Below, in pieces: positions 15,163-37,042 of a DNA stretch of 53,673 nt. This DNA comes from a virus. Taxonomy: Duplodnaviria; Caudoviricetes. Position 1 is the first letter of the stretch; every line of letters begins with the position of its first letter. The notes beneath the pieces are model-generated. The model saw only the letters and a list, made by a program, of their open reading frames with translations. It made no database searches and was not told the DNA's origin. The position numbers were made by a program, and so were the translations under genes. Where the stretch lies: IMG/VR virus record IMGVR_UViG_3300020205_004424, positions 1 through 53,673 of that record, one strand, 5' to 3'.

Positions 15163-16884
15163 ATGTCAAACATTAATTCTCTTTTAGAAAGCGCAGCATC
15201 TGGATGGAAAAACATGCAGAGTGACGCAGCTCGTATGGCTTCAAAATGGGGTAAAACGGGTCTCTTAGAAGGATTGAATAGCGAAGTTGAAAAAAACAAC
15301 ATGGCTTTAATCCTCGAAAACCAAGCAAAACAACTTGTTGTTGAGCAATCTTCAAACGGTGTAGGTGGTGCTTCTTTTACTGCTGGTCAAGGTGAGCAGT
15401 GGGCTGGTGTAGCTCTTCCATTGGTACGTAAAGTATTTGGTTCTTTATCATCTAAAGAATTCGTTTCTGTACAACCAATGAATTTGCCTTCTGGTCTTGT
15501 ATTCTTCTTGGATTTCCAATATGGTGATACAAACGGAAAAGTTGCTCCTAATGGTCCTTTCGGTCCTGGTGGAAATGCTTACGGTGCTACTTCATCTATG
15601 TACGGTAATACAAACCCTGGAACTGCAGCTGATGCTTCACAAGGTCTTTACGGTGCAGGTCGTTTCGCTTATTCAGTTAACCAATTCTCAGCTTCTTTAG
15701 CTACAACTGTAGCTGCTGCAACTTGGGCAGATGTTGAATACAACTCAGAATTATCTGCATCTTTGGCTAACTACTACAAAATTACCTATACTGTAGGTAC
15801 AGGTACTAATGCCCCACGCCCTGACTTTAAAGGTGTTCGTGCATTCGTTCCAGCTTCAGGTTCAGGTGTTCTTTCATTAGGTGCTGTATACGATCGTTTA
15901 TTACCACAGTATACTACTACTAATGGTTCAACTACTGTTACATTTGTAATTTCTGGTTCTGGTGCAATCACTAACATGGCTAACCTACCTTCAGGTTCAA
16001 CTAACACATTGTTCTACAATGTTCAACCTGCTGATAATTACCGTGGTGATTTCGAAGATAATAGCGGTGCTGGTTACCCTAACGCTGATTCTACATCTGC
16101 AGACCAATTAGCTATTCCACAGATCAATATCCAAATGAAATCTGAGGCTATTGTTGCTAAAACTCGTAAGTTGAAAGCACAATGGACACCAGAATTCGCT
16201 CAAGATTTAAACGCATACCAATCTTTGGATGCTGAAGCTGAATTGACTTCAATCATGAGTGAGTACATCGCATTGGAAATTGACCTCGAAGTAATCGATA
16301 TGTTGATCCAAGACGCATCTGCATGGGATGAGTGGTGGTCAGTTAAAAACAACACTGCGTTGAATATTGCTGGTAGCCCATCTAACTCTGGTAATCCATA
16401 TACAGATCTTGGTTTCTTCAATACACAAGGTCAGTGGTTCCAAACTTTAGGTACTAAAATGCAAAAAGTTAGTAACAAAATTCACCAAAAGACTTTACGT
16501 GGTGGTGCAAACTTCATCGTAACTTCTCCAAACGTAGCTACAATTCTTGAGTCTATCCCAGGATTTGCTTCTAGCTCTGATGGTGATGTAACTAAAGCTA
16601 GCTACGCATTCGGTATCCAGAAAGCTGGTCAAATGAACAACCGTTACACAGTTTATAAGAACCCTTATATGACTGAAGGTTTAATGTTAATGGGTTACCG
16701 TGGTTCACAGTTCCTTGAAACAGGTGCTGTATTTGCTCCATATGTTCCATTAATCATGACTCCACTTGTGTACGATCCAGATACATTTACTCCACGTAAA
16801 GGTCTCTTGACTCGTTACGCTAAGAAAATGATCCGTCCTGAATTCTTTGGTCGTATCTACATCAATGACTTAGGTTTACTATAA
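15163..16884 (+). CDS. major capsid protein (T4 gp23-like)
   Basis: ILENQ, LPLVRKVF, VQPMNLPSGLVF, AKTRKLKAQWTPEFAQDLNA, FAPYVPL, TRY. Confidence 0.95.
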   Translation: MSNINSLLESAASGWKNMQSDAARMASKWGKTGLLEGLNSEVEKNNMALILENQAKQLVVEQSSNGVGGASFTAGQGEQWAGVALPLVRKVFGSLSSKEFVSVQPMNLPSGLVFFLDFQYGDTNGKVAPNGPFGPGGNAYGATSSMYGNTNPGTAADASQGLYGAGRFAYSVNQFSASLATTVAAATWADVEYNSELSASLANYYKITYTVGTGTNAPRPDFKGVRAFVPASGSGVLSLGAVYDRLLPQYTTTNGSTTVTFVISGSGAITNMANLPSGSTNTLFYNVQPADNYRGDFEDNSGAGYPNADSTSADQLAIPQINIQMKSEAIVAKTRKLKAQWTPEFAQDLNAYQSLDAEAELTSIMSEYIALEIDLEVIDMLIQDASAWDEWWSVKNNTALNIAGSPSNSGNPYTDLGFFNTQGQWFQTLGTKMQKVSNKIHQKTLRGGANFIVTSPNVATILESIPGFASSSDGDVTKASYAFGIQKAGQMNNRYTVYKNPYMTEGLMLMGYRGSQFLETGAVFAPYVPLIMTPLVYDPDTFTPRKGLLTRYAKKMIRPEFFGRIYINDLGLL

Positions 16885-16906
16885 TAGTAACTAATCAAAG
16901 AGTGTG

Positions 16907-16932
16907 AAGAGCCTGGCGAAAGCCAGGCTTTT
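16907..16932 (+). terminator. intrinsic terminator after the capsid gene
   Basis: AGCCTGGC-gaaa-GCCAGGCT followed by Ts. Confidence 0.8.
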
Positions 16933-16969
16933 CTATTTTCCCTCAATATTTATTATCAAATATAGTTAT

Positions 16970-17668
16970 ATGACAGATTTTAATAGAACTCCTGAAGCGC
17001 AGGATGTATTTAAAGCAAAACGCAAACCAAAAGGTCCTATCAAATTCAATATTTCATTGAATGAAGAACAGAAATCAGCCAAATCAAAAATTTTAGCAAA
17101 CACAGTAACCATATTACGTGGTAAAGCGGGTTCTGGTAAATCTTTATTAGCAGCTAATATTGCTCTTGATTTGTTATTTAGTAGAGAAATTGAGAAAATT
17201 ATTATTACTCGACCAACTGTGGTAGCAGGACAAGATATTGGATTCTTACCAGGGGATGTTAATGAAAAATTAGCCCCATTTACAGCTCCAGTATACGAAA
17301 ACATGCACCGTTTGTACAACAAAGACAAAATCGAAAAATGTATAGCAGACGGTGAAATTGAAATCGTACCTGTATCATTTATGCGAGGTAGAAACTTTAC
17401 AGATTGTTTAGTTGTAGTAGATGAAGCTCAAAACTTAACAGATAATCAAACAGAACTTTTATTAACTCGTATATGTCATGGATCTAAAATGATATTTTGT
17501 GGTGATGCTGCCCAAGTTGACTTACGAGATAAAAAAACATCAGGATTTGATGTGGTATGTAAACATATGAAAGAAGTACCTGGATTTGAGGTAGTTACAC
17601 TTGAAAAAAACCATAGACATCCAATAGTAGACGATATTTTAGAAGTATACAAATCTTTCAGAGGATAG
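16970..17668 (+). CDS. phoH: PhoH-like ATPase
   Basis: GKAGSGKS, IIITRP, GFLPGD, FMRGRNF, DEAQN, GDAAQVD; ATG 16970 preferred because the track start lies in the terminator. Confidence 0.92.
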   Translation: MTDFNRTPEAQDVFKAKRKPKGPIKFNISLNEEQKSAKSKILANTVTILRGKAGSGKSLLAANIALDLLFSREIEKIIITRPTVVAGQDIGFLPGDVNEKLAPFTAPVYENMHRLYNKDKIEKCIADGEIEIVPVSFMRGRNFTDCLVVVDEAQNLTDNQTELLLTRICHGSKMIFCGDAAQVDLRDKKTSGFDVVCKHMKEVPGFEVVTLEKNHRHPIVDDILEVYKSFRG

Positions 17669-17691: not shown

Positions 17692-18180
17692 ATGGCTAAT
17701 TTATATGTAACCATTACGGAAGAAATCACTCTCCCGAATACCACTACAGAAAAAACAAACGTATTTAAAACTATATCGGGGATTAATCAAATAGTTCGCC
17801 GAGTAGATACTATTGCTACTACTTTTAGTGGTTCTGGTGTTGAAATTTTACGTTTTTGTGATAGTGAAGAAGAACAAACCGGTGGGGCATTTGTAAAAGC
17901 TGATGTTCAATATGTTCGAATTACCAATTTATCAACTCAATACAATACTTCAATATATTTAATTGCTAATAATGGCAATGAAAGTGCTTTACTTAGTTTA
18001 GATCCTGGAAAAACTATTATGTTAGGTAATGCTGACATAAACACTCCATCAATTGGTGATTATGTAGTAGATGGATATGTAGATGAAACTTATTATAGTG
18101 ATTTCACATACATTAATTCAATTAAAGCCAAAGCAATTTCAGGAAGTACACAATTGGAGTATTTTGTAGCATCAACTTAA
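17692..18180 (+). CDS. putative virion structural protein
   Basis: 162-aa beta-rich ORF behind the late motif. Confidence 0.6.
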   Translation: MANLYVTITEEITLPNTTTEKTNVFKTISGINQIVRRVDTIATTFSGSGVEILRFCDSEEEQTGGAFVKADVQYVRITNLSTQYNTSIYLIANNGNESALLSLDPGKTIMLGNADINTPSIGDYVVDGYVDETYYSDFTYINSIKAKAISGSTQLEYFVAST

Positions 18181-18199: not shown

Positions 18200-20239
18200 A
18201 TGGCAGATTTAACATTAAGATCAGTAAAAGGTTCTCCACTTACCAATGCCGAATTGGATGGTAACTTTGAATACTTTACTGGCTCACACGCAGTAACTGG
18301 TTCCCTAACAGTAACTGAAGATTTAATTGTAGAAGGAAGTATTATTGGTAATATTAGTGGATCAGTACTTATAACAACTAATGCAGGAGTCCAAGTTACA
18401 GGCTCATTAGTAGTTTCTGGTTCAAATACCTTTACAAATATTGGACCTATGAAAACAGGTGCTGCTAATAATGTAGCTGGAGGTTTTTCATTAGCCCAAG
18501 GATCTATGGTTTCAGCAAGCGGATTGTATTCACATGCTGAAGGATTTGATACTAATGCATCTGGTAATTTTTCACATGCTGAAGGACAAAATACTTTATC
18601 TCAAGGAGGATCATCACATGCTGAGGGAGTTGATACTTTTGCATTAGGTGATTTTTCACATGCTGAAGGTTATCTTACTGTTGCTTCAGGATACGCTTCA
18701 CACGCTGAAGGATATTCTACATTAGCATCAGCTTCATACCAACATGCTCAAGGAATGTGGAATGCTGCAAGCCCTATAACAGGAGCTTTCATTGTTGGTA
18801 ATGGTTCAGGCCCTTCTTCTAGATCTAATTTAATTTTTGCCGCTGGAAATCAAGTTGAAATCACAGGCTCATTAGTAGTTTCTGGAGGAATTACGGGTAC
18901 AGTAACAACAGCCTCATACATCAATCCAACATTCATTTCAGCATCAGCTGCTGCTGCTGGATTTGGTTCAGGAGGTGGAGGTTCAATTGACACTAGTATA
19001 TTTGCAACAACTGGTTCAAACACATTTAGAGGCAACCAAGTTATTTCAGGAAGTACCACAATTTCAGGTTCAATAAGTCATTTTGGATCTTTAAGAACAG
19101 GCTTTTCAGGCAATACAGTTTCACCTACTTCAGTTGCCCAAGGATATTCAGTTTCAGCTAGTGGGTTTTATGCTCATGCAGAAGGATATTATACTACAGC
19201 TTCAGGAGCTTGGTCACACGCTGAAGGATATGAAGCAAGAACTTTAGGAGGTTCTTCACATGCTGAAGGATATCAAACTGTATCATTTGGTCAATATTCA
19301 CATGCTGAAGGTCAACAAACTGTTTCTTCTGGTAGTTATTCACATGCTGAAGGTACAAATACTATAGCTTCTGGTAGTTATTCACATGCTGAAGGTTCAA
19401 GTACTATATCAAGAGGTTTTGGATCACATGCTGAAGGGGCTGGTACTACAGCAAATGGTGATTATTCTCATGCTGAAGGTAATAATAATAGAGCTACTGG
19501 ATTTAGTGCCCATGCCGAAGGTTTCTTTACATTAGCATCAGGTGATTATTCACATGCTGAAGGACAATACACAACAGCATCAGCAGTTTCTTCTCATGCT
19601 GAAGGACATGGATCTAAAGCCTTAGGTATAGGTTCCCATGCTGAAGGTGGTAATGGCCAATTCCAACCCGGTGGTACTGCATTAGGTGTAGGTTCCCATG
19701 CTGAAGGACATAATACATTTGCATCAGGTTCATATTCTCATACAGAAGGATATTTTACATCTGCAAGTGCACAATATGCACATGCTGAAGGTTATACAAA
19801 TATAGCTTCTGGCAGTTATTCACATGCTGAAGGGGCTAATACTGTATCTCAAGGAGATGGTTCTCATGCTGAAGGAGCAGGGTCTATTGCAATAGGTAAT
19901 TATTCACATGCTGAAGGGCAAAGCACTATTGCTTTAGGAGAACATTCTCATGCTGAAGGTAATCAAACAATAGCTTCTGGTTCATTCCAACTTGCTGTAG
20001 GTCAATTTAATACCCATGGAGATTCAACATCTTTAATGATCGTAGGTAACGGTGATTTTTCTACCCGTAGAGATGCATTCAAAGTAAGACAATCAGGTTC
20101 AATTGTATTACCAACTACTCAATCAACTGCCCCTTCTTGGACAGGTACAGATGGTGAGATGGTATTTGCAACAGTAACAGGAAATCATAGATTCTATGTT
20201 TGGATGGCTGGTGCATGGAGATCAGGTTCATTGTCATAA
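18200..20239 (+). CDS. fibre/adhesin-like virion protein with SHAEG (YadA-head-like) repeats
   Basis: N-terminal LRSVKGSPLTNAELDGNF; two blocks of 14-aa SHAEG repeats. Confidence 0.8.
   Translation: MADLTLRSVKGSPLTNAELDGNFEYFTGSHAVTGSLTVTEDLIVEGSIIGNISGSVLITTNAGVQVTGSLVVSGSNTFTNIGPMKTGAANNVAGGFSLAQGSMVSASGLYSHAEGFDTNASGNFSHAEGQNTLSQGGSSHAEGVDTFALGDFSHAEGYLTVASGYASHAEGYSTLASASYQHAQGMWNAASPITGAFIVGNGSGPSSRSNLIFAAGNQVEITGSLVVSGGITGTVTTASYINPTFISASAAAAGFGSGGGGSIDTSIFATTGSNTFRGNQVISGSTTISGSISHFGSLRTGFSGNTVSPTSVAQGYSVSASGFYAHAEGYYTTASGAWSHAEGYEARTLGGSSHAEGYQTVSFGQYSHAEGQQTVSSGSYSHAEGTNTIASGSYSHAEGSSTISRGFGSHAEGAGTTANGDYSHAEGNNNRATGFSAHAEGFFTLASGDYSHAEGQYTTASAVSSHAEGHGSKALGIGSHAEGGNGQFQPGGTALGVGSHAEGHNTFASGSYSHTEGYFTSASAQYAHAEGYTNIASGSYSHAEGANTVSQGDGSHAEGAGSIAIGNYSHAEGQSTIALGEHSHAEGNQTIASGSFQLAVGQFNTHGDSTSLMIVGNGDFSTRRDAFKVRQSGSIVLPTTQSTAPSWTGTDGEMVFATVTGNHRFYVWMAGAWRSGSLS
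18530..19960 (+). repeat. coding 42-bp-period repeats (TCxCATGCTGAAGG core), two blocks
   Basis: Blocks at about 18530-18750 and 19170-19960; the same unit recurs at about 24142-24450. Confidence 0.9.
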
Positions 20240-21461: not shown

Positions 21462-21462
21462 T

Positions 21463-23344: not shown

Positions 23345-23488
23345 ATGGCAAAAGCAAAAGCACAAACCTCAGTTTCTTTCATGAAAAAACCTAGAAAAAA
23401 AAGACCAGGTGTTCATGCAAAATCAAAGTCAAGTAAACTTAAATCAAGTAAAAACTACACAAAATCATACTCATCACAAGGTAGATAA
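23345..23488 (+). CDS. 47-aa very basic protein
   Basis: Translated by hand: MAKAKAQTSVSFMKKPRKKRPGVHAKSKSSKLKSSKNYTKSYSSQGR; late motif upstream; TAATG overlap with the next gene. Confidence 0.75.
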   Translation: MAKAKAQTSVSFMKKPRKKRPGVHAKSKSSKLKSSKNYTKSYSSQGR

Positions 23489-24732
23489 TGGCACATATTA
23501 AACCAGATCAGTTACGCTCAGGATTTTACGAAATAACAGGTTCGTTATATGGTACTGCTTCCTTTGCAATTACTGCATCCCATGTGGATAAAGCAGTTGT
23601 AACTGCCTCTGCTGTTAATGATACTATTACTTTTACTAAAGGTGATGGATCTACATTCCCTATAACTTTAACTAGTGTTGCAACTGCATCTTATGCATTA
23701 AATGCACTTTCAAGTTCATATGCTCTTAGTTCATCATATGCTGCAACTGCTTCATATATTAGCACTTTATATAGTAGTAATTATACACAATCATTCACAA
23801 ATCAATCTACTTGGACAGTAAACCATAATTTAAATACTTTATATGTTATTGTACAAGTATATGATACTAATTTTGATGAAATAATTCCTCAAAATATTGA
23901 TTTCACAAATGATGATACTGTTACTATTTCATTTCCAACTCTAGAAAGTGGAACTGCAGTTGTAACTGTAGGTGGTGCTCTACAAACTGGTGGAGGTGGA
24001 GGATCTATTACAATCCCAGGTAATAATACTGAAATTTTATTTAATAGTGCTAGTGCTTTACAAGCATCACCATACTTTAAATTTAATTATGTTAATAGTG
24101 CATTCCAACACGGATTTAGTAATATTGCTCAAGGAGCAGGTTCTCATGCTGAAGGGGGATCTACTTTAGCTTCTGGGGATGCAAGTCATGCTGAAGGTAA
24201 CTTTACAGTGTCATCTGGTGATAATTCTCATGCTGAAGGTGACCAAACTACTGCCCAAGGATTTGCTAGTCATGCTGAAGGTTGGTTTACTAGTGCTAAC
24301 GGATATGCAAGTCATGCTGAAGGTTTATATGCTACTTCTATTGGAGGTAATTCTCATGCTGAAGGTGCATATACTGTATCTCAAGGAAATTATTCTCATG
24401 CTGAAGGTCAAGGAGCTATATCGTTAGGAGATTTTTCCCATGCTGAAGGTTTAAATACTATAGCATCTGGCTCTCATCAACATGTTCAAGGGGTATATAA
24501 CACCCATGGAGATGCTACTTCATTAATGATTGTAGGTAATGGTACTAGTATTAATACTCGTAGAGATGCATTTAAAGTAAGAATGTCAGGCTCTATTGTT
24601 TTACCTACAACACAATCATCTGCTCCTTCTTGGACAGGAACTGATGGAGAAATTGTTCCTGCAACAATAGGAGGTCAATATTTTCTTTATATGTGGATGA
24701 ATGGAGCCTGGAGGTCAGGTTCATTTGTCTAA
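23488..24732 (+). CDS. fibre/adhesin-like protein with SHAEG repeats
   Basis: WTVNHNLN domain, SHAEG repeats, C-terminus shared with 18200..20239. Confidence 0.8.
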   Translation: MAHIKPDQLRSGFYEITGSLYGTASFAITASHVDKAVVTASAVNDTITFTKGDGSTFPITLTSVATASYALNALSSSYALSSSYAATASYISTLYSSNYTQSFTNQSTWTVNHNLNTLYVIVQVYDTNFDEIIPQNIDFTNDDTVTISFPTLESGTAVVTVGGALQTGGGGGSITIPGNNTEILFNSASALQASPYFKFNYVNSAFQHGFSNIAQGAGSHAEGGSTLASGDASHAEGNFTVSSGDNSHAEGDQTTAQGFASHAEGWFTSANGYASHAEGLYATSIGGNSHAEGAYTVSQGNYSHAEGQGAISLGDFSHAEGLNTIASGSHQHVQGVYNTHGDATSLMIVGNGTSINTRRDAFKVRMSGSIVLPTTQSSAPSWTGTDGEIVPATIGGQYFLYMWMNGAWRSGSFV

Positions 24733-24755: not shown

Positions 24756-25007
24756 ATGAGATTATTTTCCCCAGTCATAACCGGTTCCTTAAACGTCACG
24801 GGTTCAGCAGCTATAACTGGATCTTTGTTTGTTCAAAGTAGTAATAATGATATTTTTCTCATTAAAAATGCAAATAATACTACTGTTTTAGCAGTATCTC
24901 AAAGTGGAGTTGTTGTATTTTCTACTCAATCCCAAGTTTTAACCGGTCCCGCACCAAATGGAGGTATTTATTTTACATCTGCTTCGTTTTTTGTTGGCCT
25001 TGATTAG
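24756..25007 (+). CDS. small virion protein
   Basis: 83 aa with ITGSL/VTGSA repeats; late motif. Confidence 0.65.
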   Translation: MRLFSPVITGSLNVTGSAAITGSLFVQSSNNDIFLIKNANNTTVLAVSQSGVVVFSTQSQVLTGPAPNGGIYFTSASFFVGLD

Positions 25008-25041: not shown

Positions 25042-26034
25042 ATGGCAACTTGGAAAAAAGTCATCGTCTCGGGCAGTAATGCTAACTTAACATCATTACA
25101 AGTAGACAACTTAACTTCCGGTCAAGTAGTAATTGGTGGTGGTACAGGTAACTTATCCACAACAGCAATTAATGGTACTGGAAATATTTTAGCAACTACT
25201 GGAGCAACTGGAGTATCTATTTCAGGTTCATTTAGTGGTTCATTCTTTGGTAACGGTTCAGGTTTAACTGGTGTTACTGCAGCATTTCCAACTACTCAAA
25301 AGACAGATTTAGCAAATACCGATCAATTTTATATCAATGACGGTGCTAACAAATATGTTACTTATGGTGATCTATTAACTGACTTAGCAGGTACTAATTT
25401 AGCAGTTGAAGGTTCAGATAGTTTAACATTAGCTACTACTATTACAGGTATTACTTCAATTTCCTCAACTTCATTTACAGGTTCGTTATTAGGAAATGTT
25501 AATGGTACTGCAAGTTGGGCAGTAAATGCACAAAATGTTTCTAGTATTGCTAATAATATTACCAACAATACAAACAATTACGTATTAACTGCAACTGGTA
25601 CTGGTGCTATTAATGGTGAATCTAATTTACAATTTGACGGTACTACATTAACAGTAACAGGTAATGAAACTATTACAGGTAACTTAATTGTACAAGGTAC
25701 TGCTTCATTCCAAAATACAACTAATTTAGAGGTTGCTGATAGATTTATTTTATTAGCCTCTGGCTCCAATTCAGCTGGTGATGGTGGTTTAGTAATTCAA
25801 CAAACTACACAAGATGTAGGTGAATTATTTGGTTATGAAAACTCAATTAATCGTTGGGGTTTCACATCTAGTTTTACAGCCAATGGATCAACATTTAACG
25901 CAGCTGCATATGTAACTACAACAGAAGTTGCAGCATCTGCTCCATCAGCAGCTCCACTTTATGGTGGTGCTTCAAACGGTTACGGTAACATTCATGTTAA
26001 TACACTTACAGGAGATATTTATATTTATTCTTAA
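25042..26034 (+). CDS. tail-fibre-related structural protein
   Basis: G/S/T/N-rich; N-terminus WKKVIVSGS shared with 27295..30018. Confidence 0.7.
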   Translation: MATWKKVIVSGSNANLTSLQVDNLTSGQVVIGGGTGNLSTTAINGTGNILATTGATGVSISGSFSGSFFGNGSGLTGVTAAFPTTQKTDLANTDQFYINDGANKYVTYGDLLTDLAGTNLAVEGSDSLTLATTITGITSISSTSFTGSLLGNVNGTASWAVNAQNVSSIANNITNNTNNYVLTATGTGAINGESNLQFDGTTLTVTGNETITGNLIVQGTASFQNTTNLEVADRFILLASGSNSAGDGGLVIQQTTQDVGELFGYENSINRWGFTSSFTANGSTFNAAAYVTTTEVAASAPSAAPLYGGASNGYGNIHVNTLTGDIYIYS

Positions 26035-26576: not shown

Positions 26577-27302
26577 ATGAGTAATAGTGAAAACTTTTAC
26601 GTTTACTGTCATGTTAAAAAAACAGATGGTAAATGTTTTTATGTAGGGAAAGGAACAGGCAATCGCTTTCAAACAACATATTCCCGCAACAGGTATTGGA
26701 AAGATATAGTAGATCAACATGGATTTGAACCTATTATATTAATTAATAATATATCTGAATCAAATGCTTTTAAATTTGAATCTATTATATGCGAAAAGAT
26801 AGGATATAATAATCTTGTAAATATACGAAAAGAAGAAGGTTGGGGAGGACACCGTCATCAACCTGAAACCCTGAAAAAACTATCTAAACCAGTTTTACAA
26901 TATACAAAAGAAGGTATTTTAGTAAAAACTTGGGATAGTGCTACTCTAGCAGCTAAATCGCTTAATAAATCTCATAGTGCTGCAATTACAGAATGTTGCA
27001 GAGGATTAAGACCATATATATACGGGTTTATTTGGAGACATATTGATAATCCTATAGAAGAACCCCAAAAAATAATTAATAGAAAAGAAAAATCAGAAAA
27101 AATACCACCATATTATCATCCAATAGAACAATATGATAAAAATGGTAATTTTATAAAATTATGGAACAATGCTAGAGAAATATCTCGTTCATTAAAAATA
27201 AAATCTGGTTCTATATCACAGTGCTTAAACGGTAAACATAAATCCGCTGGAGGATTTATTTGGAAAAAATCATTAAATAAGAAAGGAGTGCATTTTGCCT
27301 AA
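26577..27302 (+). mobile_element. free-standing GIY-YIG homing endonuclease with two NUMOD1-like repeats
   Basis: FYVYCH...FYVGKG...R at the N-terminus; two P(V/I).QY.K.G...K.W.....I..C..G.....GFIW repeats. Confidence 0.8.
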
Positions 27303-30018
27303 TTGGAAGAAAGTAATTGTATCGGGCTCTGATGCCTCTCTGAATTCAATAACTACCCCCGCAGGTACAATCAATAATATTACGGCATCTTATGCGATGA
27401 CCGCATCCCATGCTTTAAACGGTGGTGTAACACAATTATTAGCAGGACCTAATATAACTCTTTCCCCAACAACAGGTAAAGGACAAGTAACTATTTCTTC
27501 TACCGGAGGTGGAGGACCCTTCTTTAATACAGCAACAGGATCTTATGGATCCTTTTATGATACAACAACTCAAACCAACCTAGTAGCTAATATTCCACGT
27601 TCAATGTCTTTTAATACAACAGACATTACAAATGGAGTTTCTATTTCAGGATCAACAAGCCCATTTAACACATATATTAAAACAGAAAATCCTGGTGTAT
27701 ACAATATCCAATTTTCTGCTCAAGTAGATAAAACAGACGGTGGTACTGATGATATTGTTATTTGGTTGAGAAAAAATGGAATTGATTTAATTGATACAGC
27801 AACTACATTAACATTACCAACAAATAACTCAAAAGTAGTAGCAGCTTGGAACTGGTTTGTAAACTCAGCGGCTAATGATTACTACCAAATTATATGGCTC
27901 TCAGCAGATACTGATCTAAGATTACTAGCCGAACCTATTTCAGGTACCCACCCAGGCATCCCTTCAGTAATATTAACTGCAAATAGAGTAGATCAATTTT
28001 TATCCAATACAGGATCATTTAGTGGTTCATTTACAGGAACATTTACAGGTTCATTACAAGGTACTGCAAGTTGGGCAACAAATGCTTTAACAGCATCAAA
28101 CATTTCTCCTGCCATAGCAAATGATGCAGATACTAGAATTCTAACTGCTAATGGAAACGGGACATTAAATGGTGAAGCCAACATGACATTTGATGGTACT
28201 ACATTAGCAGTTAATCAAAAATTAACAGTAGGAACATCCCACACCAACTCAGGAACATTATCCTCGATTGCCGGTGGTACTGGAAATATAGCATCAGGAA
28301 ACTGTTCATTTATCGGTGGTGGTACTTTAAATACGGGATCTGCAGATTTTTCAACAGTTGGAGGTGGAAAAGCTAACACAGCATCTGGTTATAATTCAAC
28401 AATAAGCGGAGGTATAAACAACACAGCTTCTAATTATTTTTCAACAGTAGGTGGTGGAAAATGTAACACAGCATCTTGTAATAATTCAACAGTAGGTGGT
28501 GGTAATTCAAATACTGCATCAGGTTATTATTCAACAGTAAGCGGAGGTACAAACAACATAGCATCTGGTTATAAATCAACAGTAAGCGGAGGTACAAACA
28601 ACACAGCATCTAGTTTTAATTCAACAGTAAGCGGAGGTACATACAACACAGCATCTAATTTTTATGCAACAGTAGGTGGTGGATTTGGCAACATAGCATC
28701 TGGTTATAAATCAACAATAAGCGGAGGTACAAACAACACAGCATCTGGTTATGTTTCAACAGTAAGCGGAGGTACATACAACACAGCATCTAGTTATTTT
28801 TCAACAATAAGCGGAGGTTCAACCAACACAGCATCTAGTTCTTGGTCAACAGTAGGTGGTGGATCTGGCAACACAGCATCTGGTTATTGGTCAACAGTAG
28901 GTGGTGGATCTGGCAACACAGCATCTGGTTATTGTTCAACAGTTAGTGGCGGATATTGCAATACAGCATCTGGTTATTGTTCAACAGTTAGTGGTGGATA
29001 TAATAATACAGCATCCGGACCTCGGTCAACAGTTGGAGGTGGAAAAGCTAACACAGCATCTGGTTATAATTCAACAATAAGCGGAGGTACAAACAACACA
29101 GCTCAAGCATTTGCAGGGTTCATAGGTGGTGGTAACTGCAATAATGTTTGTAATGTAACAAGTGGATGCCTTGCTTATGGGGCAGTAGTTGCGGGTGGTG
29201 TAGGTAATAATACTGATGGAGGTACATGGAATTTATCACTTGGTTTATTTCTTTTTCCACCAACTATTTGCAACGCAGGTCAGTATTCATTTATAGGTGG
29301 TGGTTTTCAGAATAAAGCATCAGGAAATTATTCAACAGTTAGTGGTGGATATAATAATACAGCATCTGGTTATAAATCAACAGTAGGTGGTGGTAATTAT
29401 AATACAGCATCTAATTATTATTCAGTTGTTGGTGGTGGATCTGGCAACACAGCATCTGGTAATCGTTCAACAGTAGGTGGTGGTAATTCAAACACAGCTT
29501 CTAATTTATATGCAACGGTTAGTGGTGGATATTGCAACACAGCATCTGGTTATTATTCAACAATTGGTGGTGGTGGATGTAATACAGCTTTAGTAAATTA
29601 TTCAATAGTAGGTGGTGGTCGTTTAAACATAGCATCTGGTTATAATTCAACAGTAGGTGGTGGTATTGCTAATACAGCATCTTGTTATTGGTCAACAGTT
29701 AGTGGTGGTCATTCAAACACAGCTTCTAATTGTTTTTCAACAGTTAGTGGTGGATATTGCAACACAGCATCTGGTACTCGTTCAACAGTAGGTGGTGGAA
29801 GAACTAATACAGCATCAGGAACATATTCAGGTATTTTAGGTGGGTGCGGAAATACTGCATCATGTGCTTGTTCATTTATAGTAGGTACACAGATTACAAC
29901 AGATAGAGTTTGCACAACATTTGTAAATAATCTTTCTATTAAAAATGTCCCAACATCTGCAGCTGGTTTGCCTGCTGGTTCTGTTTGGTCTAATGGTGGA
30001 GTTTTAAATATTGTCTAA
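27295..30018 (+). CDS. long tail fibre/adhesin with 14-aa NTASGxxSTVxGG repeats
   Basis: 907 aa, TTG start; repeat region occupies most of the C-terminal two thirds. Confidence 0.8.
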   Translation: MPNWKKVIVSGSDASLNSITTPAGTINNITASYAMTASHALNGGVTQLLAGPNITLSPTTGKGQVTISSTGGGGPFFNTATGSYGSFYDTTTQTNLVANIPRSMSFNTTDITNGVSISGSTSPFNTYIKTENPGVYNIQFSAQVDKTDGGTDDIVIWLRKNGIDLIDTATTLTLPTNNSKVVAAWNWFVNSAANDYYQIIWLSADTDLRLLAEPISGTHPGIPSVILTANRVDQFLSNTGSFSGSFTGTFTGSLQGTASWATNALTASNISPAIANDADTRILTANGNGTLNGEANMTFDGTTLAVNQKLTVGTSHTNSGTLSSIAGGTGNIASGNCSFIGGGTLNTGSADFSTVGGGKANTASGYNSTISGGINNTASNYFSTVGGGKCNTASCNNSTVGGGNSNTASGYYSTVSGGTNNIASGYKSTVSGGTNNTASSFNSTVSGGTYNTASNFYATVGGGFGNIASGYKSTISGGTNNTASGYVSTVSGGTYNTASSYFSTISGGSTNTASSSWSTVGGGSGNTASGYWSTVGGGSGNTASGYCSTVSGGYCNTASGYCSTVSGGYNNTASGPRSTVGGGKANTASGYNSTISGGTNNTAQAFAGFIGGGNCNNVCNVTSGCLAYGAVVAGGVGNNTDGGTWNLSLGLFLFPPTICNAGQYSFIGGGFQNKASGNYSTVSGGYNNTASGYKSTVGGGNYNTASNYYSVVGGGSGNTASGNRSTVGGGNSNTASNLYATVSGGYCNTASGYYSTIGGGGCNTALVNYSIVGGGRLNIASGYNSTVGGGIANTASCYWSTVSGGHSNTASNCFSTVSGGYCNTASGTRSTVGGGRTNTASGTYSGILGGCGNTASCACSFIVGTQITTDRVCTTFVNNLSIKNVPTSAAGLPAGSVWSNGGVLNIV
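28260..29880 (+). repeat. coding 42-bp tandem repeat array
   Basis: AACACAGCATCTGGTTAT...TCAACAGT units, interrupted at about 29100-29300. Confidence 0.9.
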
Positions 30019-30073: not shown

Positions 30074-30967
30074 ATGGAAAAAAAATATTCAATTTTTCAC
30101 ATTGAAGGTGGTTTAGGAAAACATATTGCTGCAACTGCTGTTGCACGTTGTATTAAGAAAAATCATCCCGATCGTGAACTTATCATAGTTTGTGCTTACC
30201 CACAACCCTTTTTAAATTTAGATTTTGTGTCTCGTGTATATAGAATAGGTGTCACACCATATTTCTATAAAGATTATATTGATCAAAAAGATACACTTAT
30301 ATTCAAACACGAACCATATTTCACAACAGAACATATTCATAAAACACTTCCACTAATTGAAAATTGGTGCAAGTTATATAATTTAGAATATAATGGTGAA
30401 CAACCTGAACTATCATTCAATGATAGAGAGTTACAAAAATATAGTAGAACATGGCAATCTCAAAAACCTATATTTGTGATTCAATCAAATGGAGGACTAC
30501 TTAATTCCGAAAGTGGTTTACCTTATAGATGGACTAGAGATATTCCATTTGACATTACTCAACAAATTGTAGACAAATACCAAGACCAATACACAATATA
30601 TCAAATTACAAGACCTGGATCCCCAGTTGCTAATGGTGCTATTGAAGTTACAAATGAAATGACTTCAATGGAATTGCTTTCTGTATTGTTGTATTCTGAA
30701 AAACGTTTATTGATTGATTCATCTTTGCAACATGCCGCAGCTGCTTTAAATTTACCTTCAACTGTATTGTGGGTTGGAACATCTCCAAAAGTATTTGGAT
30801 ATGATCTACACGATAATATTGTTGCTGAAATTCCTGAAGATCAAAAACTTCCGGATAGTTATTTCTTTGACTATGATTTTGAAGGTCAATTACATGACTA
30901 TCCATTTAAAGGAGATTTATTTGACATAGATACAATTACAAAATCACTAACAAGACAAAGTTTATAA
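30074..30967 (+). CDS. GT-B glycosyltransferase, GT9 (heptosyltransferase)-like
   Basis: GGLGKHI, IDSSLQHAAAALNLPSTVLW..TSP..FGY. Confidence 0.75.
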   Translation: MEKKYSIFHIEGGLGKHIAATAVARCIKKNHPDRELIIVCAYPQPFLNLDFVSRVYRIGVTPYFYKDYIDQKDTLIFKHEPYFTTEHIHKTLPLIENWCKLYNLEYNGEQPELSFNDRELQKYSRTWQSQKPIFVIQSNGGLLNSESGLPYRWTRDIPFDITQQIVDKYQDQYTIYQITRPGSPVANGAIEVTNEMTSMELLSVLLYSEKRLLIDSSLQHAAAALNLPSTVLWVGTSPKVFGYDLHDNIVAEIPEDQKLPDSYFFDYDFEGQLHDYPFKGDLFDIDTITKSLTRQSL

Positions 30968-31782
30968 TGCAAAAGTTATTTTTTCAATCATCCTTGCCTA
31001 GAGCAGGATCAACCCTATTACAAAATGTTTTAGGACAGAACCCCGATTTTTATGTTACACCAACCTCTGGTGTTCTAGAACTCGTTTATGCTGCCCGTAA
31101 CAACTATTCAACATCAGCTGAATTCAAAGCACAAGATTCTGATTTGATGCGAGAAGGATTTAAACAATTCTGCCATGATGGCGTTACTGGTTTTTTTAAA
31201 GCAGTAACAGACAAACCATATATAATGGACAAAAGTAGAGGATGGGGCTATCATAGAGATTTCCTAGATTTCTTCTACCCAGATCCAAAAATTGTATGTA
31301 TGATTCGAGATCCTAGAGCTATATTTTCTTCTATGGAAAAAAACTTTAGAAAAAACCCCGAACAAGACAAAGGTATAGTTAACCATGCAGAAATGGCAGG
31401 TGTAACCACCGAACAACGCATTGATATGTGGGCAGCAGGTGTCCCTGTGGGAATGGCACTACAGCGTTTATATCAAATAGTAAAAGAAGGAAATGACCAA
31501 AAAATGCTATTTGTGAAATATGAAGACCTAATGAAAAACCCACAAGGTGAAATGGATCGAATCTACAAATATTTAGACATTCCTTCATACACCCATGACT
31601 TTGATAACATCCAACAAATTACCCAAGAAGATGATGAAGTATATGGCGCATATGGAGACCATACAATTAAACCAAAACTAACCCCAGTAAAACCAGATTG
31701 GAACGAAGTACTAGGAAAAAGTGCAGCTGCATGGATTCGTAGTAATTATACATGGTTCTACGAATATTTCGGATACGCTTAA
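30967..31782 (+). CDS. PAPS-dependent sulfotransferase
   Basis: 5'-PSB SLPRAGSTLL, 3'-PB IRDPRAIFSS, VKYEDL..NP. Confidence 0.88.
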   Translation: MQKLFFQSSLPRAGSTLLQNVLGQNPDFYVTPTSGVLELVYAARNNYSTSAEFKAQDSDLMREGFKQFCHDGVTGFFKAVTDKPYIMDKSRGWGYHRDFLDFFYPDPKIVCMIRDPRAIFSSMEKNFRKNPEQDKGIVNHAEMAGVTTEQRIDMWAAGVPVGMALQRLYQIVKEGNDQKMLFVKYEDLMKNPQGEMDRIYKYLDIPSYTHDFDNIQQITQEDDEVYGAYGDHTIKPKLTPVKPDWNEVLGKSAAAWIRSNYTWFYEYFGYA

Positions 31783-32142: not shown

Positions 32143-32613
32143 ATGATTTATTGGTTTACCGGACAGCCTGGAGCAGGTAAAACTGTTTTAGCAACTGCTT
32201 TAAAACAAGAAATGGACAACACTTTCCATATTGATGGAGATGATTTACGTGCCATTTTCGATAACAAAGATTATAGTGAAACTGGTAGAAGAAAAAATAT
32301 TGAGCTAGCGCAACAACTAGCTCATTTTCTTTACAATAAAGGAAACAACGTAGTTGTATCCCTTGTTTCACCATACAAAGATCAACGTGAAGAATTTAAA
32401 ACAAAACTTGGAGACTCATTAAAAGAGTTTTATGTTCATACTACTGAAATACGAGGACGAGAAAATTTCCATGTTGAAAACTATCAACAACCAACAGAAA
32501 ATTATCTTGATATAGATACTACAAATATTTCCGTTGAAGAATGTTTAAACAAAATTAAAAGTTATGCAAAATTGGACCAAGAAAGTACACGTACAATCAT
32601 CCCTACAATCTAA
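32143..32613 (+). CDS. cysC: adenylyl-sulfate (APS) kinase
   Basis: WFTGQPGAGKT, IDGDDLR, YSETGRRKNI, VSLVSPY..QR, YQQP. Confidence 0.88.
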   Translation: MIYWFTGQPGAGKTVLATALKQEMDNTFHIDGDDLRAIFDNKDYSETGRRKNIELAQQLAHFLYNKGNNVVVSLVSPYKDQREEFKTKLGDSLKEFYVHTTEIRGRENFHVENYQQPTENYLDIDTTNISVEECLNKIKSYAKLDQESTRTIIPTI

Positions 32614-32968
32614 ACCAAACCAATACGCTTTATTTATTGGTCGTTGGCAACCATTACATGATGGGCATAAAGCTCTATTCCAACAAGCTTTAGATGAAGG
32701 AAAAAATGTTTGGATTGCAATCCGAGATGTTGAAACAACTGAATCAAACCCATTTGATGCTCAAGAAGTACTTAAAAATATTGGAAATGAATATAAAGAA
32801 CTATGTGGCCAAGGCAGAATTAAAGTCAGCATCATCCCTGACATATGTTCAGTGGAGTTTGGTAGAGGAGTGGGCTATGATATTATTGAGCATATTCCTC
32901 CTGTAGAGGTAGCTGAAATATCTGCTACAAAAGTAAGAGAGCAAATGCGTAAAGAAGGTAAATTATGA
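32564..32968 (+). CDS. HxGH nucleotidyltransferase (cytidylyltransferase/NMNAT/ATP-sulfurylase fold)
   Basis: FIGRWQPLHDGH and C-terminal ISATKVRE. Confidence 0.8.
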   Translation: MQNWTKKVHVQSSLQSKPNQYALFIGRWQPLHDGHKALFQQALDEGKNVWIAIRDVETTESNPFDAQEVLKNIGNEYKELCGQGRIKVSIIPDICSVEFGRGVGYDIIEHIPPVEVAEISATKVREQMRKEGKL

Positions 32969-33516: not shown

Positions 33517-35286
33517 ATGGCAGAAACAATTGTCTCACCTGGTGTATTAGCAATAGAGAACGATCAATCATTTGTAACTCAACAACCTGTACAAGCAGGT
33601 GCTGCTATCATTGGACCAACCGTTAAAGGTAAAGTAGGAATCCCTACTCTAGTAACTACATATAGTGATTATTTAAATAAGTTTGGTGCTACTTTCCTTA
33701 GTGGAAGTAACACCTATACTTTTTTAACTTCAATTGCAGCATATAATTATTTTGCTGGTGGTGGAAATACATTATTAGTTACCCGTGTAGTAAGTGGTAG
33801 TACATCAACCGCTTGGACCCCTGCAACATCTTCATTTATTTCTGCTTCCGCCCATTCAGTTGGTTCACCTTATAATACTAATGTTTTTGTACTAGAAACA
33901 ATATCTGAAGGTATTATTATGAATAGTGCCGGACCTACTGGTTCAAATGGTACATTATTGAGTGGATCAAATGAAAACTATAGATGGCAAATTGTATCCC
34001 CAGATACAAATAATGGAACGTTTTCACTTGTTATTCGTCAAGGAAATGATTCAAATATTCAACAATCTACTTTAGAAACTTGGGGTCCACTTTCATTGGA
34101 CCCATTTGCTTCAAATTATATTGAAAAAGTAATTGGAAACCAGGTTGAAACTATTCAAGTAGACAATGGTGAATATTATATTCAAATGTCTGGAAGTTAT
34201 GCAAACCAATCTGCTTACGTTCGTGTTAAACAAGTAAATCAAACTACTCCAAATTATTTTGATAATGTAGGAAATCCAAAAAATGAATATACTGGATCTA
34301 TTCCTACTACACAAAGTGGAGTATTTGGTGATGCTAAAGGAAATATTATCCCTACAGGTGTTGCTGCAGCGTATTATGAAAAAATTTCAAATACAAACAT
34401 TCAAGGTTTAACTGCAAATGATTATACTGAATCTATTTCTTTATTAGCAAATAAAGATGCATTTAAATATAATTTGTTAATTGCTCCTGGTTTAATTGCT
34501 GACCCAACTCAATTCCCTTTACATAACAGTGTAGTAAACCAAATGATTACTACTGTTCAAGAAAGAGGAGATTCAATGGTAGTAACCGATGTAGTCGGAT
34601 ATGGATCAAACATTAACCCAGTAGTTTCTAGTGCCCAAACTAAAGATACTTCATATGCCGCAGTATATTGGCCTTGGTTATACACAGTAGACCCAAATAC
34701 ATCTAATCAAGTGTGGGTACCTACAACAACATTAATCCCAAGAGTATATGCTCAAAATGATGCTATTGCTTATCCTTGGTTTGCACCTGCTGGTATTAAT
34801 CGTGGGGTAATGACATCTGTTATTAAAACAGAACGTATATTAACTCAAGGAAATAGAGATTTACTTTACAAAAATAATATAAATCCAATTGCAAATATTG
34901 CTACCGCTAATGGATCTGCAATAACAGTATTTGGACAAAAAACTCTACAGAAAAAATCAAGTGCTTTAGATCGTGTAAATGTACGTCGTTTATTAATTGA
35001 ACTTAAAAACTATATTTCTCAAGTAGCCGATACGTTTGTATTTGAACAAAACAATGCAATAACTAGAAGTAATTTATTATCATTAATTAATCCGTATTTA
35101 TCACAAGTTCAACAACAACAAGGATTAACAGCATTTCAAGTAGTAATAAACGAAACTAATAATCCACCTAGTGTTGTAGATCAAAATCAAATAATTGGTC
35201 AAATTTATTTACAACCTACTAGAACAGCTGAATATATCATACTTGATTTCAATATATTACCTACTGGTGCAACGTTTCCTGCTTAA
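33517..35286 (+). CDS. tail sheath protein 1
   Basis: SPGV..E.D, YWPW, WFAPAGINRG, INPIA, FGQKTLQ, LDRVNVRRL, FEQN, PTRTAEYI. Confidence 0.93.
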   Translation: MAETIVSPGVLAIENDQSFVTQQPVQAGAAIIGPTVKGKVGIPTLVTTYSDYLNKFGATFLSGSNTYTFLTSIAAYNYFAGGGNTLLVTRVVSGSTSTAWTPATSSFISASAHSVGSPYNTNVFVLETISEGIIMNSAGPTGSNGTLLSGSNENYRWQIVSPDTNNGTFSLVIRQGNDSNIQQSTLETWGPLSLDPFASNYIEKVIGNQVETIQVDNGEYYIQMSGSYANQSAYVRVKQVNQTTPNYFDNVGNPKNEYTGSIPTTQSGVFGDAKGNIIPTGVAAAYYEKISNTNIQGLTANDYTESISLLANKDAFKYNLLIAPGLIADPTQFPLHNSVVNQMITTVQERGDSMVVTDVVGYGSNINPVVSSAQTKDTSYAAVYWPWLYTVDPNTSNQVWVPTTTLIPRVYAQNDAIAYPWFAPAGINRGVMTSVIKTERILTQGNRDLLYKNNINPIANIATANGSAITVFGQKTLQKKSSALDRVNVRRLLIELKNYISQVADTFVFEQNNAITRSNLLSLINPYLSQVQQQQGLTAFQVVINETNNPPSVVDQNQIIGQIYLQPTRTAEYIILDFNILPTGATFPA

Positions 35287-35332
35287 TAGCATATTTTAAG
35301 GAAACTTTAGATATTTATAATAAAAAAATACG

Positions 35333-37042
35333 ATGGCAAATTTCACAACTTCTCCTGGAGTAGCAATTAGCGAAATAGACAACACATTCTTAACTGGACA
35401 ACCAGTTCAAGCAGGTGCTGCTATTATAGGCCCAACAGTTAAAGGTCCTGTTGAAAAACCAACACTTGTAACAACCTATTCAGACTTTGTAACATTGTTT
35501 GGAGATACATTCATTAGTGGTGGTAATTCTTATTCATACCTTACTTCAATTGCTGCTTACAATTATTTTAATTATGGAGGAACTTCATTATTAGTTGCTC
35601 GTGTAGCAAGTGGTTCTTATACATCTGCAGTTAGTACTACAATTCTTAACTCTATTCACCCAACATCAGCTTCATTTGTTTTAGAAACTATTTCTGAAGG
35701 AGAAATTATGAATAATTCAGGATCCATGTCTTCAGGATCCCTACTTTCAGGATCAGCTGATAATATTCGTTGGGAAATTACAAATGCAAATACTGGATCA
35801 GGTACATTCAATGTATTAATTCGTCGTGGTAATGATATTCCTACTAATAAAGTAGTATTAGAAGCATGGAATAACTTAACATTAGATCCAAATTCAAGTC
35901 GTTACATTGCTGCTGTAATTGGTGATCAAGAATTAAATTATAATAGTGCTACTCAACAAATGGAAGTATCTGGATCTTATCCAAACAGCTCACGTTATGT
36001 CCGTGTAAAATCTGTTAATTATCCAACTCCAAATTACTTCACTTCCACAGGAACCCCAGTAACTGCATATACTGCTTCAATCCCATTAAATGGAAGTGGC
36101 TCAGCGGGTGGTGCATTTACTAATGCTTCAGGAACTGTAAGTAATAATATTAAGTTATATGACCGAATTGATTCATCTACACAAGGATTAAGTGGTAGTG
36201 ACTATAATAACATGATTACACTTTTTGGTAATCCTGAAGCATTCCAATTTAATGTATTATTTACTCCTGGTTTGTTAAATAGCGAACACACTGCACAAGT
36301 TACAAATATTATCTCAAATACAATTTCAAGAGGAGATAATTTATATGTAATGGATTTAACAACATATAATAGTCCTATTGCATCAGCAATTCAACAAGCA
36401 AACACACGTGATACTTCATATGCCACAACATATTGGCCTTGGGTTCGTATTATCGACCCAGCAACAGGAAAACATGTTTGGGTGCCTGCTTCAACAGTAA
36501 TCCCAGGTGTATATGCGTTTAACGATAAAGTATCAGCTCCATGGTTTGCTCCAGCAGGTATAAACCGCGGTGGATTAAGCACAGTTCTCCAAGCTGAACT
36601 GAAATTGACACAAGGTAATCGTGACACGTTATACAGCAATAATATTAACCCTATTGCAACACTACCTCAACAAGGAGTTGTAGTATATGGTCAGAAAACA
36701 TTACAAAAAGCTCAATCTGCTCTTGATCGTGTAAACGTACGTCGTTTAATGATTGAATTGAAATCATATATTCGTCAAATTGCAGATACGATCGTGTTTG
36801 AACAAAATACAATTACTACAAGAATAGCATTTACTTCAAGAGTTACTCCATATTTGGAATCAATTCAACAAAAACAAGGTTTATACGCATTTAAAGTAGT
36901 AATGGATGATACAAATAACGGACCAGCAGTAATTGATCAAAACCAATTAGTAGGTCAAATTTATATCCAACCAACACGTACAGCTGAATTTATCTCACTA
37001 GACTTTATCTTAATGCCTACAGGAGCTGAATTCCCAGGGTAA
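35333..37042 (+). CDS. tail sheath protein 2
   Basis: Same motif set as sheath 1; full-length paralog. Confidence 0.93.
   Translation: MANFTTSPGVAISEIDNTFLTGQPVQAGAAIIGPTVKGPVEKPTLVTTYSDFVTLFGDTFISGGNSYSYLTSIAAYNYFNYGGTSLLVARVASGSYTSAVSTTILNSIHPTSASFVLETISEGEIMNNSGSMSSGSLLSGSADNIRWEITNANTGSGTFNVLIRRGNDIPTNKVVLEAWNNLTLDPNSSRYIAAVIGDQELNYNSATQQMEVSGSYPNSSRYVRVKSVNYPTPNYFTSTGTPVTAYTASIPLNGSGSAGGAFTNASGTVSNNIKLYDRIDSSTQGLSGSDYNNMITLFGNPEAFQFNVLFTPGLLNSEHTAQVTNIISNTISRGDNLYVMDLTTYNSPIASAIQQANTRDTSYATTYWPWVRIIDPATGKHVWVPASTVIPGVYAFNDKVSAPWFAPAGINRGGLSTVLQAELKLTQGNRDTLYSNNINPIATLPQQGVVVYGQKTLQKAQSALDRVNVRRLMIELKSYIRQIADTIVFEQNTITTRIAFTSRVTPYLESIQQKQGLYAFKVVMDDTNNGPAVIDQNQLVGQIYIQPTRTAEFISLDFILMPTGAEFPG

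Follow-up and report, generated by a model that had tools for sequence, protein, structure and literature searches.

What does a short peptide motif do when it recurs across the outer proteins of a virus particle? The question is raised by a 53,673-nucleotide stretch of a tailed phage (Duplodnaviria; Caudoviricetes; IMG/VR record IMGVR_UViG_3300020205_004424, positions 1 to 53,673), hereafter the window, in which a sequence-only reading had picked out the tripeptide [ST][GA]S as a mark of surface-exposed virion proteins. That reading proposed a recognition site for modification, possibly by a sulfated glycan made by a neighboring gene cassette. All large open reading frames (ORFs) of the window lie on the + strand, and the window comprises the structural half of the genome of a distant T4-type myophage; among named phages, its capsid protein comes closest to that of Flavobacterium phage immuto (57% identical), followed by those of Microcystis phage Mel-JY01 (47%), an uncultured 484-kb phage (45%), and Rhodothermus phage RM378 (35%). 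We find that the motif is a genuine sequence feature, specific to its lineage and as yet undescribed, and we favor, with a probability of roughly one half, the reading that it is a structural strand-turn-strand element typical of this lineage.

Enrichment of Ser-Gly-Ser in the variable parts of virion proteins

The major capsid protein (15163..16884; 573 amino acids; T4 gp23 family, Pfam Gp23 E = 6e-75) contains five copies of [ST][GA]S, three of them SGS, all between residues 176 and 279 (nucleotides 15688-15999) in its variable insertion. Tail sheath paralog 1 (33517..35286) contains seven (four SGS), all at residues 62-261 and outside the conserved C-terminal core, and tail sheath paralog 2 (35333..37042) contains ten (seven SGS), all at residues 93-289; both sheaths match PF04984 and PF17482. 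The fibers that begin at 18200, 23488, 25042, and 27295 carry 24, 10, 7, and 35 copies, respectively, while terminase, portal, tube, and oxidoreductase carry none and the tape measure and the scaffold-position protein one each. Every count given by the sequence-only reading was exact on recount, and the motif does lie outside conserved cores, in variable parts of sheath and capsid.

We compared each protein with 2000 shuffled versions of itself under each of three schemes (whole protein, 30-residue blocks, and 15-residue blocks); the ranges given here span all three. The excess was kept throughout: 7 observed versus 1.4-1.9 in sheath 1 (p ≤ 0.002), 10 versus 1.8-2.4 in sheath 2 (p ≤ 0.0005), and 4 versus 0.45-0.55 in an 83-amino-acid protein at 24756 (p ≤ 0.0005). 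The capsid protein, with 5 versus 1.7-2.05 (p 0.025-0.053), is marginal taken alone. When the capsid protein and the two sheath paralogs were pooled, [ST][GA]S occurred 22 times versus 4.81 expected, and order-permuted controls of the same composition were flat ([ST]S[GA], 6/4.75; [GA][ST]S, 4/4.85; [GA]S[ST], 5/4.82; S[ST][GA], 5/4.74). An unbiased scan of all tripeptides in these three proteins placed the core of the signal in exact SGS (14 observed versus 1.2 expected); SAS stood at 4/1.26, TGS at 3/1.24, and TAS at 1/1.23.

The window holds 40 SGS in all. Because these are written with 21 different 9-mers, which follow general codon usage, SGS is a feature at the protein level, and a cause at the DNA level is ruled out. 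Thirty-eight of the 40 fall in capsid, sheath, fiber, and neighboring small proteins; the other two are in an adaptor-like protein at 20313 and in a homing endonuclease.

A motif chosen after the sequence was viewed invites the objection that it reflects chance, composition, or that choice itself, the more so as the capsid protein alone is marginal. Replication in unseen data refutes this objection, and we give it next to no credence. Among 80 relatives of sheath 1 (47-93% identical, median 72%), SGS averages 3.9 per protein versus 0.40 expected; among 59 relatives of sheath 2, 4.6 versus 0.43; and among 65 capsid proteins (the window's and 64 relatives), 1.74 versus 0.40. We also assembled 150 cluster representatives of the sheath family, which share under 50% identity among themselves and match sheath 1 at 35-65% identity over the aligned stretches. 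SGS occurs in them 442 times versus 80.9 expected, and its z score is second among all tripeptides, level with tripeptides of the invariant core motifs. In these representatives SGS is raised 5.5-fold, TGS 2.5-fold, SAS 2.5-fold, and TAS 1.8-fold, and the mirror forms that end in Thr about 1.1- to 1.5-fold (TGT, 1.1-fold; SGT, 1.4-fold). Since all four forms are raised, the degenerate definition adopted in the sequence-only reading was well chosen. The position of the motif is likewise reproduced: the 135 representatives that reach 500 residues or more contain 407 SGS, of which 380 precede the final 290 residues.

The excess is specific to the lineage. Genome wide, SGS is found 91 times versus 27.0 expected in a complete close relative (G001), 65 versus 23.7 in immuto, 63 versus 21.2 in Mel-JY01, and 29 versus 10.5 in RM378, compared with 13 versus 14.8 in the T4-species phage RB55 and a weak 1.4-fold excess (40 versus 28.3) in cyanophage P-SSM7. 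A general property of sheath proteins is ruled out, as the sheaths of RB55, P-SSM7, Bacillus phage HSE3, and Campylobacter phage CP8 have no SGS and that of Cr30 has one. RM378 is the exception within the lineage, with 0 SGS and one [ST][GA]S in sheath and capsid each. Elsewhere the excess is carried by a few proteins (8 in G001, 11 in immuto, and 9 in Mel-JY01), which, where they can be named, are sheath, fiber, spike, and baseplate-periphery proteins; the G001 protein with the most SGS (22) consists of 17 DUF5122 β-propeller repeats.

The sequence-only reading had also contrasted outer with inner proteins, and this contrast holds in part. In the window, terminase, portal, tube, and oxidoreductase lack the motif, and across the clade terminase, portal, protease, tape measure, tube, and eight other protein classes have 0 SGS versus about 38 expected, a tally over related sequences that are not independent trials. 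What did not hold is a depletion across the rest of the genome. Once a fixed rule had been used to remove motif-rich proteins (those with three or more sites that also reach three times the shuffled mean), SGS in the remaining proteins was at or above expectation in all five lineage genomes or windows (window, 7/7.6; G001, 30/19.3; immuto, 14/14.5; Mel-JY01, 17/15.0; RM378, 26/10.1), and we found no avoidance of the motif in them. An apparent depletion (5 versus 15) arose only when the proteins were partitioned by eye and was gone under the fixed rule.

Strand flanks and fixed positions of the sites

In the fibers, the motif recurs at the period of recognized structural repeats, at a fixed position, with periods of 6 and 15 residues. 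The fiber at 18200..20239 (24 sites) is built of YadA-head-type repeats of the form '..ASGSYSHAEG..' (PF05658 YadA_head, E = 2.2e-19, 69.7 bits against a cutoff of 25), and a second fiber at 23488..24732 (10 sites) has the same repeat type (PF05658, E = 1.2e-8, 35.5 bits) and a C-terminal domain in common with the first. TGS recurs every 6 residues at the N termini of both ('..TGSL..' periodicity in the 18200 fiber) and of the 83-amino-acid protein (24756..25007), whose sequence holds three TGS at six-residue spacing and one SAS. A fiber-like protein with seven sites (25042..26034; PF06598 Chlorovi_GP_rpt, E = 2.1e-6) shares its N terminus, 'WKKVIVSGS', with the next fiber. That fiber (27295..30018), a large, cysteine-rich β-roll protein of 907 amino acids with 35 sites, matches PF18792 UspA1_rep (E = 6.4e-15, 54.5 bits, cutoff 27) and PF21300 β-roll (E = 5.4e-9, 36.5 bits, cutoff 30); its sites, mostly TAS, come one to each 15-residue 'NTASG..STV.GG' repeat. 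Outside the fibers, a 162-amino-acid protein with two SGS (17692..18180) matches no Pfam family and gives only unnamed viral clusters in the fold/feature Atlas, and its relatives average 1.6 SGS (34 observed versus 1.8 expected in 21 distinct relatives).

Sites in sheath and capsid were followed in alignments of the window's protein with its relatives (81 sequences for sheath 1, 60 for sheath 2, and 65 for capsid). Many are strongly retained: in sheath 1, SGS149 in 81/81 sequences, SGS62 in 73/81, SGS93 in 55/81 (with TGS in 19 more), and SGS225 in 55/81; in sheath 2, SGS255 in 58/60, SGS213 in 56/60, and SGS139 in 51/60; and in the capsid protein, SAS198 in 50/65, SGS232 in 49/65, and SAS176 in 44/65, in a region whose mean column conservation is 0.60. 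Three sites are common to both sheath paralogs. Within sites, Gly is the least variable residue, and Ser is exchanged mainly for Thr, Gly, Asn, or Ala. Over the wider family, the 407 SGS of the 135 long representatives are spread over 135 alignment columns. Some eight of these columns recur and account for roughly half of the SGS, whereas 92 columns have a single occurrence each.

This mixture bears on the possibility that the motif, rather than being a simple turn or a modified site, serves in contact or binding, such as fiber docking on sheath or head, intersubunit contacts, or weak polysaccharide adhesion. Its restriction to outer parts of several virion proteins, its lineage specificity, and the strict retention of some sites, such as SGS149 of sheath 1, would suit such a role, but the many singleton columns are more in keeping with a building block of general use than with a particular interface, and we consider a contact role unlikely.

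The sequence around the sites resembles that of β-strands. Flanking 441 SGS sites of the 150 sheath representatives, hydrophobic residues are raised at positions -3 to -1 (0.37-0.47 versus a background of 0.32), and aromatic residues alternate downstream, with frequencies of 0.22, 0.16, and 0.16 at +1, +3, and +5 and of 0.09 and 0.07 at +2 and +4 (background, 0.10). Hydrophobic residues before the site and alternating aromatics after it therefore make a β-strand signature on either side of SGS. AlphaFold models, whose low confidence (mean predicted local distance difference test scores of 59.5 and 50.6) limits their use to secondary-structure context, place sites at strand ends or in loops between strands. 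In sheath 2, S213 ends a predicted strand at 209-213 and SGS93 follows one at 86-90; in the capsid protein, SGS232 follows a strand at 229-231, S264 ends one at 258-264, and SGS277 precedes one at 280-287.

The insertion domains of sheath and capsid that carry these sites are presumably exposed, judging from established knowledge of T4 gp18 and gp23. No solved structure was found for them, as matches in the PDB are limited to sheath residues 358-587 and capsid residues 322-553. No domain common to the two insertions was detected, and the sheath and capsid alignments share no detectable relation (hhalign probability, 0.2%), so that the motif does recur in proteins without detectable sequence relation, much as the sequence-only reading had held. 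Neither insertion matches the YadA-head, UspA1, or β-roll Pfam families. The likeness to those repeats (PF05658, PF18792, and PF21300) thus covers the fibers, in which motif sites are repeat positions in matches above the Pfam cutoffs, while the sheath and capsid insertions have the tripeptide without belonging to any such family.

From these observations we infer a conformational role. The motif, in its sharpest form hydrophobic-Ser-Gly-Ser-aromatic and more loosely [ST][GA]S, would form the connection between two β-strands, with Gly making the tight turn and small serines on either side of it. The same connector may have been reused in the β-rich outer modules of the virion, that is, in fiber repeats, spikes, and the insertion domains of sheath and capsid. 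We propose that the variable outer parts bear the motif because they alone are built of strand-turn-strand units; terminase, portal, tube, the C-terminal core of the sheath, and the HK97 core of the capsid would lack such units. This role requires no modification of the serines, and the cassette with a sulfotransferase gene upstream of the sheath genes would be an unrelated accessory island. A structural element of this kind explains the fiber repeats, the strand flanks, the fixed positions, the absence of avoidance elsewhere in the genome, and the independence from the cassette described below.

Several observations weigh against this interpretation. Common turn-forming tripeptides show no enrichment in the sheath representatives (NGx and DGx, 0.5- to 1.6-fold), and TGT stands at 1.1-fold in the same proteins that raise SGS 5.5-fold. 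General turn propensity was accordingly rejected as a sufficient cause: given 5.5-fold for SGS, 2.5-fold for TGS, and 1.4-fold for SGT, it does not account for the demand for Ser, above all at the third position. Homologous T4-type sheaths, those of RB55, P-SSM7, HSE3, CP8, and (with its single SGS) Cr30, manage without the motif, which moreover recurs in domains that have no detectable homology to one another. The models that support a turn are of the low confidence noted above. Six consecutive ORFs of the window (42154-49850) have no [ST][GA]S versus 5.5 expected (P = 0.001, for a run picked post hoc). Structure alone does not explain why Ser is preferred to Thr or Asn or why unrelated domains converge on one tripeptide. 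The six ORFs occupy the position of the baseplate-region genes of immuto, whose counterparts carry a few SGS.

Candidate enzymes for a possible modification of the motif

The preference for Ser, the motif-free sheaths of other T4-type phages, and the convergence of unrelated domains would all be explained if the serines of [ST][GA]S, lying in hairpins, were acceptors for cytoplasmic O-glycosylation by phage glycosyltransferases (GTs). The lineage encodes candidate enzymes, although none of their genes lies in the window. In immuto (region 46000-66000), an 11-kb island holds glycosyltransferases and sugar-modifying genes. Its core consists of four genes, for a GT-B enzyme of 479 amino acids, a GT4 enzyme of 430 amino acids, a 154-amino-acid protein, and a GT2 enzyme of 207 amino acids, and these are 39-61% identical between immuto and all three relatives examined (one at G001:143000-162999). 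The 8-10 kb or so downstream of the core varies by genome and includes further GT2s, FkbM and other methyltransferases, a short-chain dehydrogenase/reductase, a hexapeptide acyltransferase, PIG-L, and aminotransferases. One relative has an ORF for an Acb1-like (anti-CBASS) protein inserted in its island.

In this version of O-glycosylation, the conserved GT-B pair (gp181 and gp180 in immuto) and the small GT2 would start the glycan, and the variable tailoring genes would diversify it. A conserved core of this kind is a better candidate enzyme set than the cassette in the window. Neither Pfam scans covering 20 ORFs in the island of one relative nor the immuto annotation named a flippase, polymerase, or lipid-carrier priming enzyme, which fits a soluble acceptor. 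A conserved starter with a variable tailoring set would likewise suit a soluble acceptor made by the phage; this could be a virion protein and could equally be DNA.

The sequence-only reading had suggested looking for co-occurrence of motif and glycosyltransferases across phages, and the outcome is mixed. The 479-amino-acid GT-B enzyme is found in 7 of 50,697 phage records, the same seven that have full-length capsid matches, and all belong to the motif-bearing lineage. GT2 genes are present in 7/7 lineage members tested (five of five long relatives, immuto, and Mel-JY01) and in neither RB55 nor P-SSM7; Cr30, a third phage outside the lineage, gives only a match below threshold. Against this, the seven records form a single clade, so that the co-occurrence amounts to one phylogenetic event, and RM378 has the GT pair without motif enrichment in its sheath and capsid.

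The genomic setting points in another direction as well. In RM378 the GT pair is flanked by genes for a DNA polymerase I-like protein and ribonucleotide reductase, and in immuto and relatives it adjoins a PD-(D/E)XK nuclease gene, so that the glycan could go on DNA. A Tet/JBP search for a DNA-hydroxymethylation route gave no match, with the control genomes silent too. Thymidylate-synthase-family genes are present in three of five genomes; one complete genome with the GT island lacks them, which argues weakly against a hydroxymethyl-pyrimidine route. In the PDB, the GT-B enzymes find generic matches (chlorovirus B736L, 3oy2, E = 7e-5; and, for the 479-amino-acid enzyme, Gtf1, 4pqg, E = 0.0035 over about 60 residues of the C-terminal lobe only). 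Two properties of the motif also argue against acceptor sites: it is not avoided in nonvirion proteins, and many sites keep their place in the alignments and do not turn over. On balance, O-glycosylation of the motif serines is a tentative alternative, one that we hold to be possible and less probable than a structural role. Its fullest form is more doubtful still: that a T4-like lineage of aquatic phages, comprising RM378, the Microcystis and Flavobacterium phages, and the phage of the window, coats sheath, head, and fibers with a phage-made O-glycan at the serines of [ST][GA]S, a strand-turn-strand sequon sharpest as Ser-Gly-Ser. The GT-B pair would start this glycan, and its variation would come from the changing island, joined in a few members by a heptosyltransferase-like/sulfotransferase cassette.

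Known glycosylation systems offer partial parallels. The capsid of chloroviruses is glycosylated by virus-encoded cytoplasmic enzymes, with N-linked glycans at atypical sites. The lineage resembles them in an island with sugar methyltransferases and no detected lipid-carrier genes, and in B736L as the best PDB match of the conserved GT-B enzyme, a match that is weak and generic to GT-B. The general O-glycosylation system of Bacteroidetes acts in the periplasm on the sequon D-[ST]-[AILVMT], likewise a three-residue Ser/Thr motif, and the only cultured host of the clade is in that phylum. However, Asp precedes 0/107 sites in the window and 24/953 in the representatives, and D[ST][AILVMT] itself is at expectation in 11 motif-bearing proteins (12 observed versus 13.9). 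Glycosylation of serine-rich-repeat adhesins by GtfA/GtfB has long tracts of Ser-x dipeptides as its substrate, whereas the sites here are isolated tripeptides between strands, without serine-rich tracts.

Two further precedents come from the literature. Mycobacteriophage virions bear glycans at the C termini of capsid and tail-tube subunits, according to a passage of PMC12619734 that cites Freeman 2023. These are tailed phages with glycosyltransferases of their own, and the lineage studied here also encodes several; here, however, the capsid sites are internal (the last at residue 279 of 573), the tube has none, and the sites are candidates known from sequence. TibC and AAH, as described in PMC4358343, are cytoplasmic, WaaC-like GT-B enzymes that put heptose on loop serines of the repetitive β-helix proteins AIDA-I and TibA, TibC having an iron-binding cysteine cluster and forming a dodecameric ring. 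The fibers of the window are comparable repeat β-structures with Ser at turns, and a possible GT9-like gene lies near a kinase/nucleotidyltransferase pair; the GT9 assignment is nevertheless below threshold (13.9 bits against 22), and the cassette that contains the gene is absent from most motif-bearing relatives.

That cassette lies within the structural module, between the last fiber gene and the sheath genes, and encodes, in order, a possible GT9-like enzyme, a sulfotransferase, a DUF7936 protein, an APS-kinase-like protein overlapping a cytidylyltransferase-like protein, and a DUF2061 protein. The first (30074..30967; 297 amino acids) is a lead only, as a glycosyltransferase of the heptosyltransferase fold: the Atlas relates it to two viral clusters, one (feature score, 0.98) with PF01075 in 45% of its members and the other (TM score, 0.79) named GT9, while PF01075 itself reaches E = 0.035 (13.9 bits, under the cutoff of 22), and no PDB sequence match was found. 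The sulfotransferase (30967..31782) matches PF13469 (E = 2.5e-24) and PF00685 (E = 8.9e-15), the APS-kinase-like P-loop kinase (32143-32613) matches PF01583 (E = 3.2e-15), and the cytidylyltransferase-like protein (32564-32968) matches PF01467 (E = 3.3e-6). The neighboring cassette invoked in the sequence-only reading thus does include sulfotransferase and APS-kinase-like genes. The kinase and cytidylyltransferase ORFs overlap by 50 bases and match the N- and C-terminal halves of phrog_10255 (positions 3-87 and 132-229 of 230), and this two-ORF layout and its spacing recur in relatives; the pair may be a single gene that was split, the result of a frameshift, or a mini donor synthase of two subunits.

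The sequence-only reading went further, to a sulfated glycan built on the motif serines by this cassette in the manner of proteoglycans. The location of the cassette would suit such a role, as would its combination of a sulfotransferase, a kinase/nucleotidyltransferase pair that might provide an activated donor, and a possible GT9-like enzyme. The link between motif and cassette is nonetheless unsupported because the cassette is rare among motif-bearing relatives and SGS counts are alike with and without it (4.3 versus 3.85 per sheath 1). Of 80 sheath loci, 6 carry it, as do 3 of the 34 loci that include 3 kb or more of upstream sequence; PF13469 occurs in two of five long relatives and neither of two complete relatives; and tblastn found no match to the cassette in immuto or Mel-JY01, phages in which the motif excess is present as well. 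The cassette is an accessory island uncoupled from the motif.

The proteoglycan analogy fails too. Proteoglycan attachment sites have acidic residues near Ser-Gly, often as Ser-Gly-x-Gly. Acidic residues are depleted in the flanks of the sites here (Asp plus Glu, 0.025 versus a background of 0.067 in the window and 0.060 versus 0.097 in the representatives), and Gly follows TGS or SGS at only 4/107 window sites and 67/953 representative sites. A cassette-made glycan on the motif is thus very improbable, and at most the cassette could add to a glycan in its few carriers.

Gene layout of the window and significance of the motif

The structural genes of the window further include, by Pfam matches, a terminase (6113), a T4-type portal protein (7723), and a prohead protease (12995). 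PhoH (16904-17668, also a Pfam match) sits within the structural module; the window's copy has no SGS, and 41 distinct relatives have 21 versus 1.2 expected. A homing-endonuclease-like gene of the GIY-YIG/NUMOD type (26577-27302) lies between fiber genes and has a homolog in just one related locus. The tandem sheath paralogs (33517-37042) are 53-58% identical across the aligned rows of sheath 1 and sheath 2. Of 80 related loci, 59 keep both, and many of the rest are cut off before this can be judged; immuto has one sheath gene compared with the window's two. A homolog search listed only close relatives, of at least 72% identity, and added nothing to the related loci.

Two features of the fibers stand apart from the motif. 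The β-roll fiber at 27295-30018 is unusually rich in Cys inside its 15-residue repeats (e.g., '..GYCSTVSGGYCNTASGYC..'), which may point to ladders of disulfides or metal ions that run along it. The fibers at 18200-20239 and 23488-24732 share a nearly identical C-terminal domain ('..HGD.TSLMIVGNG...RRDAFKVR.SGSIVLPTTQS.APSWTGTDGE..', ending 'AWRSGS'), which looks like a swapped or duplicated tip module.

Full-text searching, which did not extend to supplementary files, found no report of Ser-Gly-Ser or a similar motif in phage virion proteins or of sulfated phage virions. Should its role be structural alone, the motif is a useful marker of the lineage and a case of unrelated outer domains converging on one strand connector, a modest result. 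If its serines are acceptors, it would be a sequon for phage virion glycosylation that can be read from sequence, would give a substrate to the widespread glycosyltransferase island of aquatic myophages, and would be directly testable in the cultured Flavobacterium phage immuto, a phage of Flavobacterium sp. LMO8. It would then be the first virion-glycosylation sequon defined in tailed phages of Gram-negative hosts and cyanobacteria, in which a glycan coat would bear on adsorption, aggregation, grazing, and recognition by host defenses.

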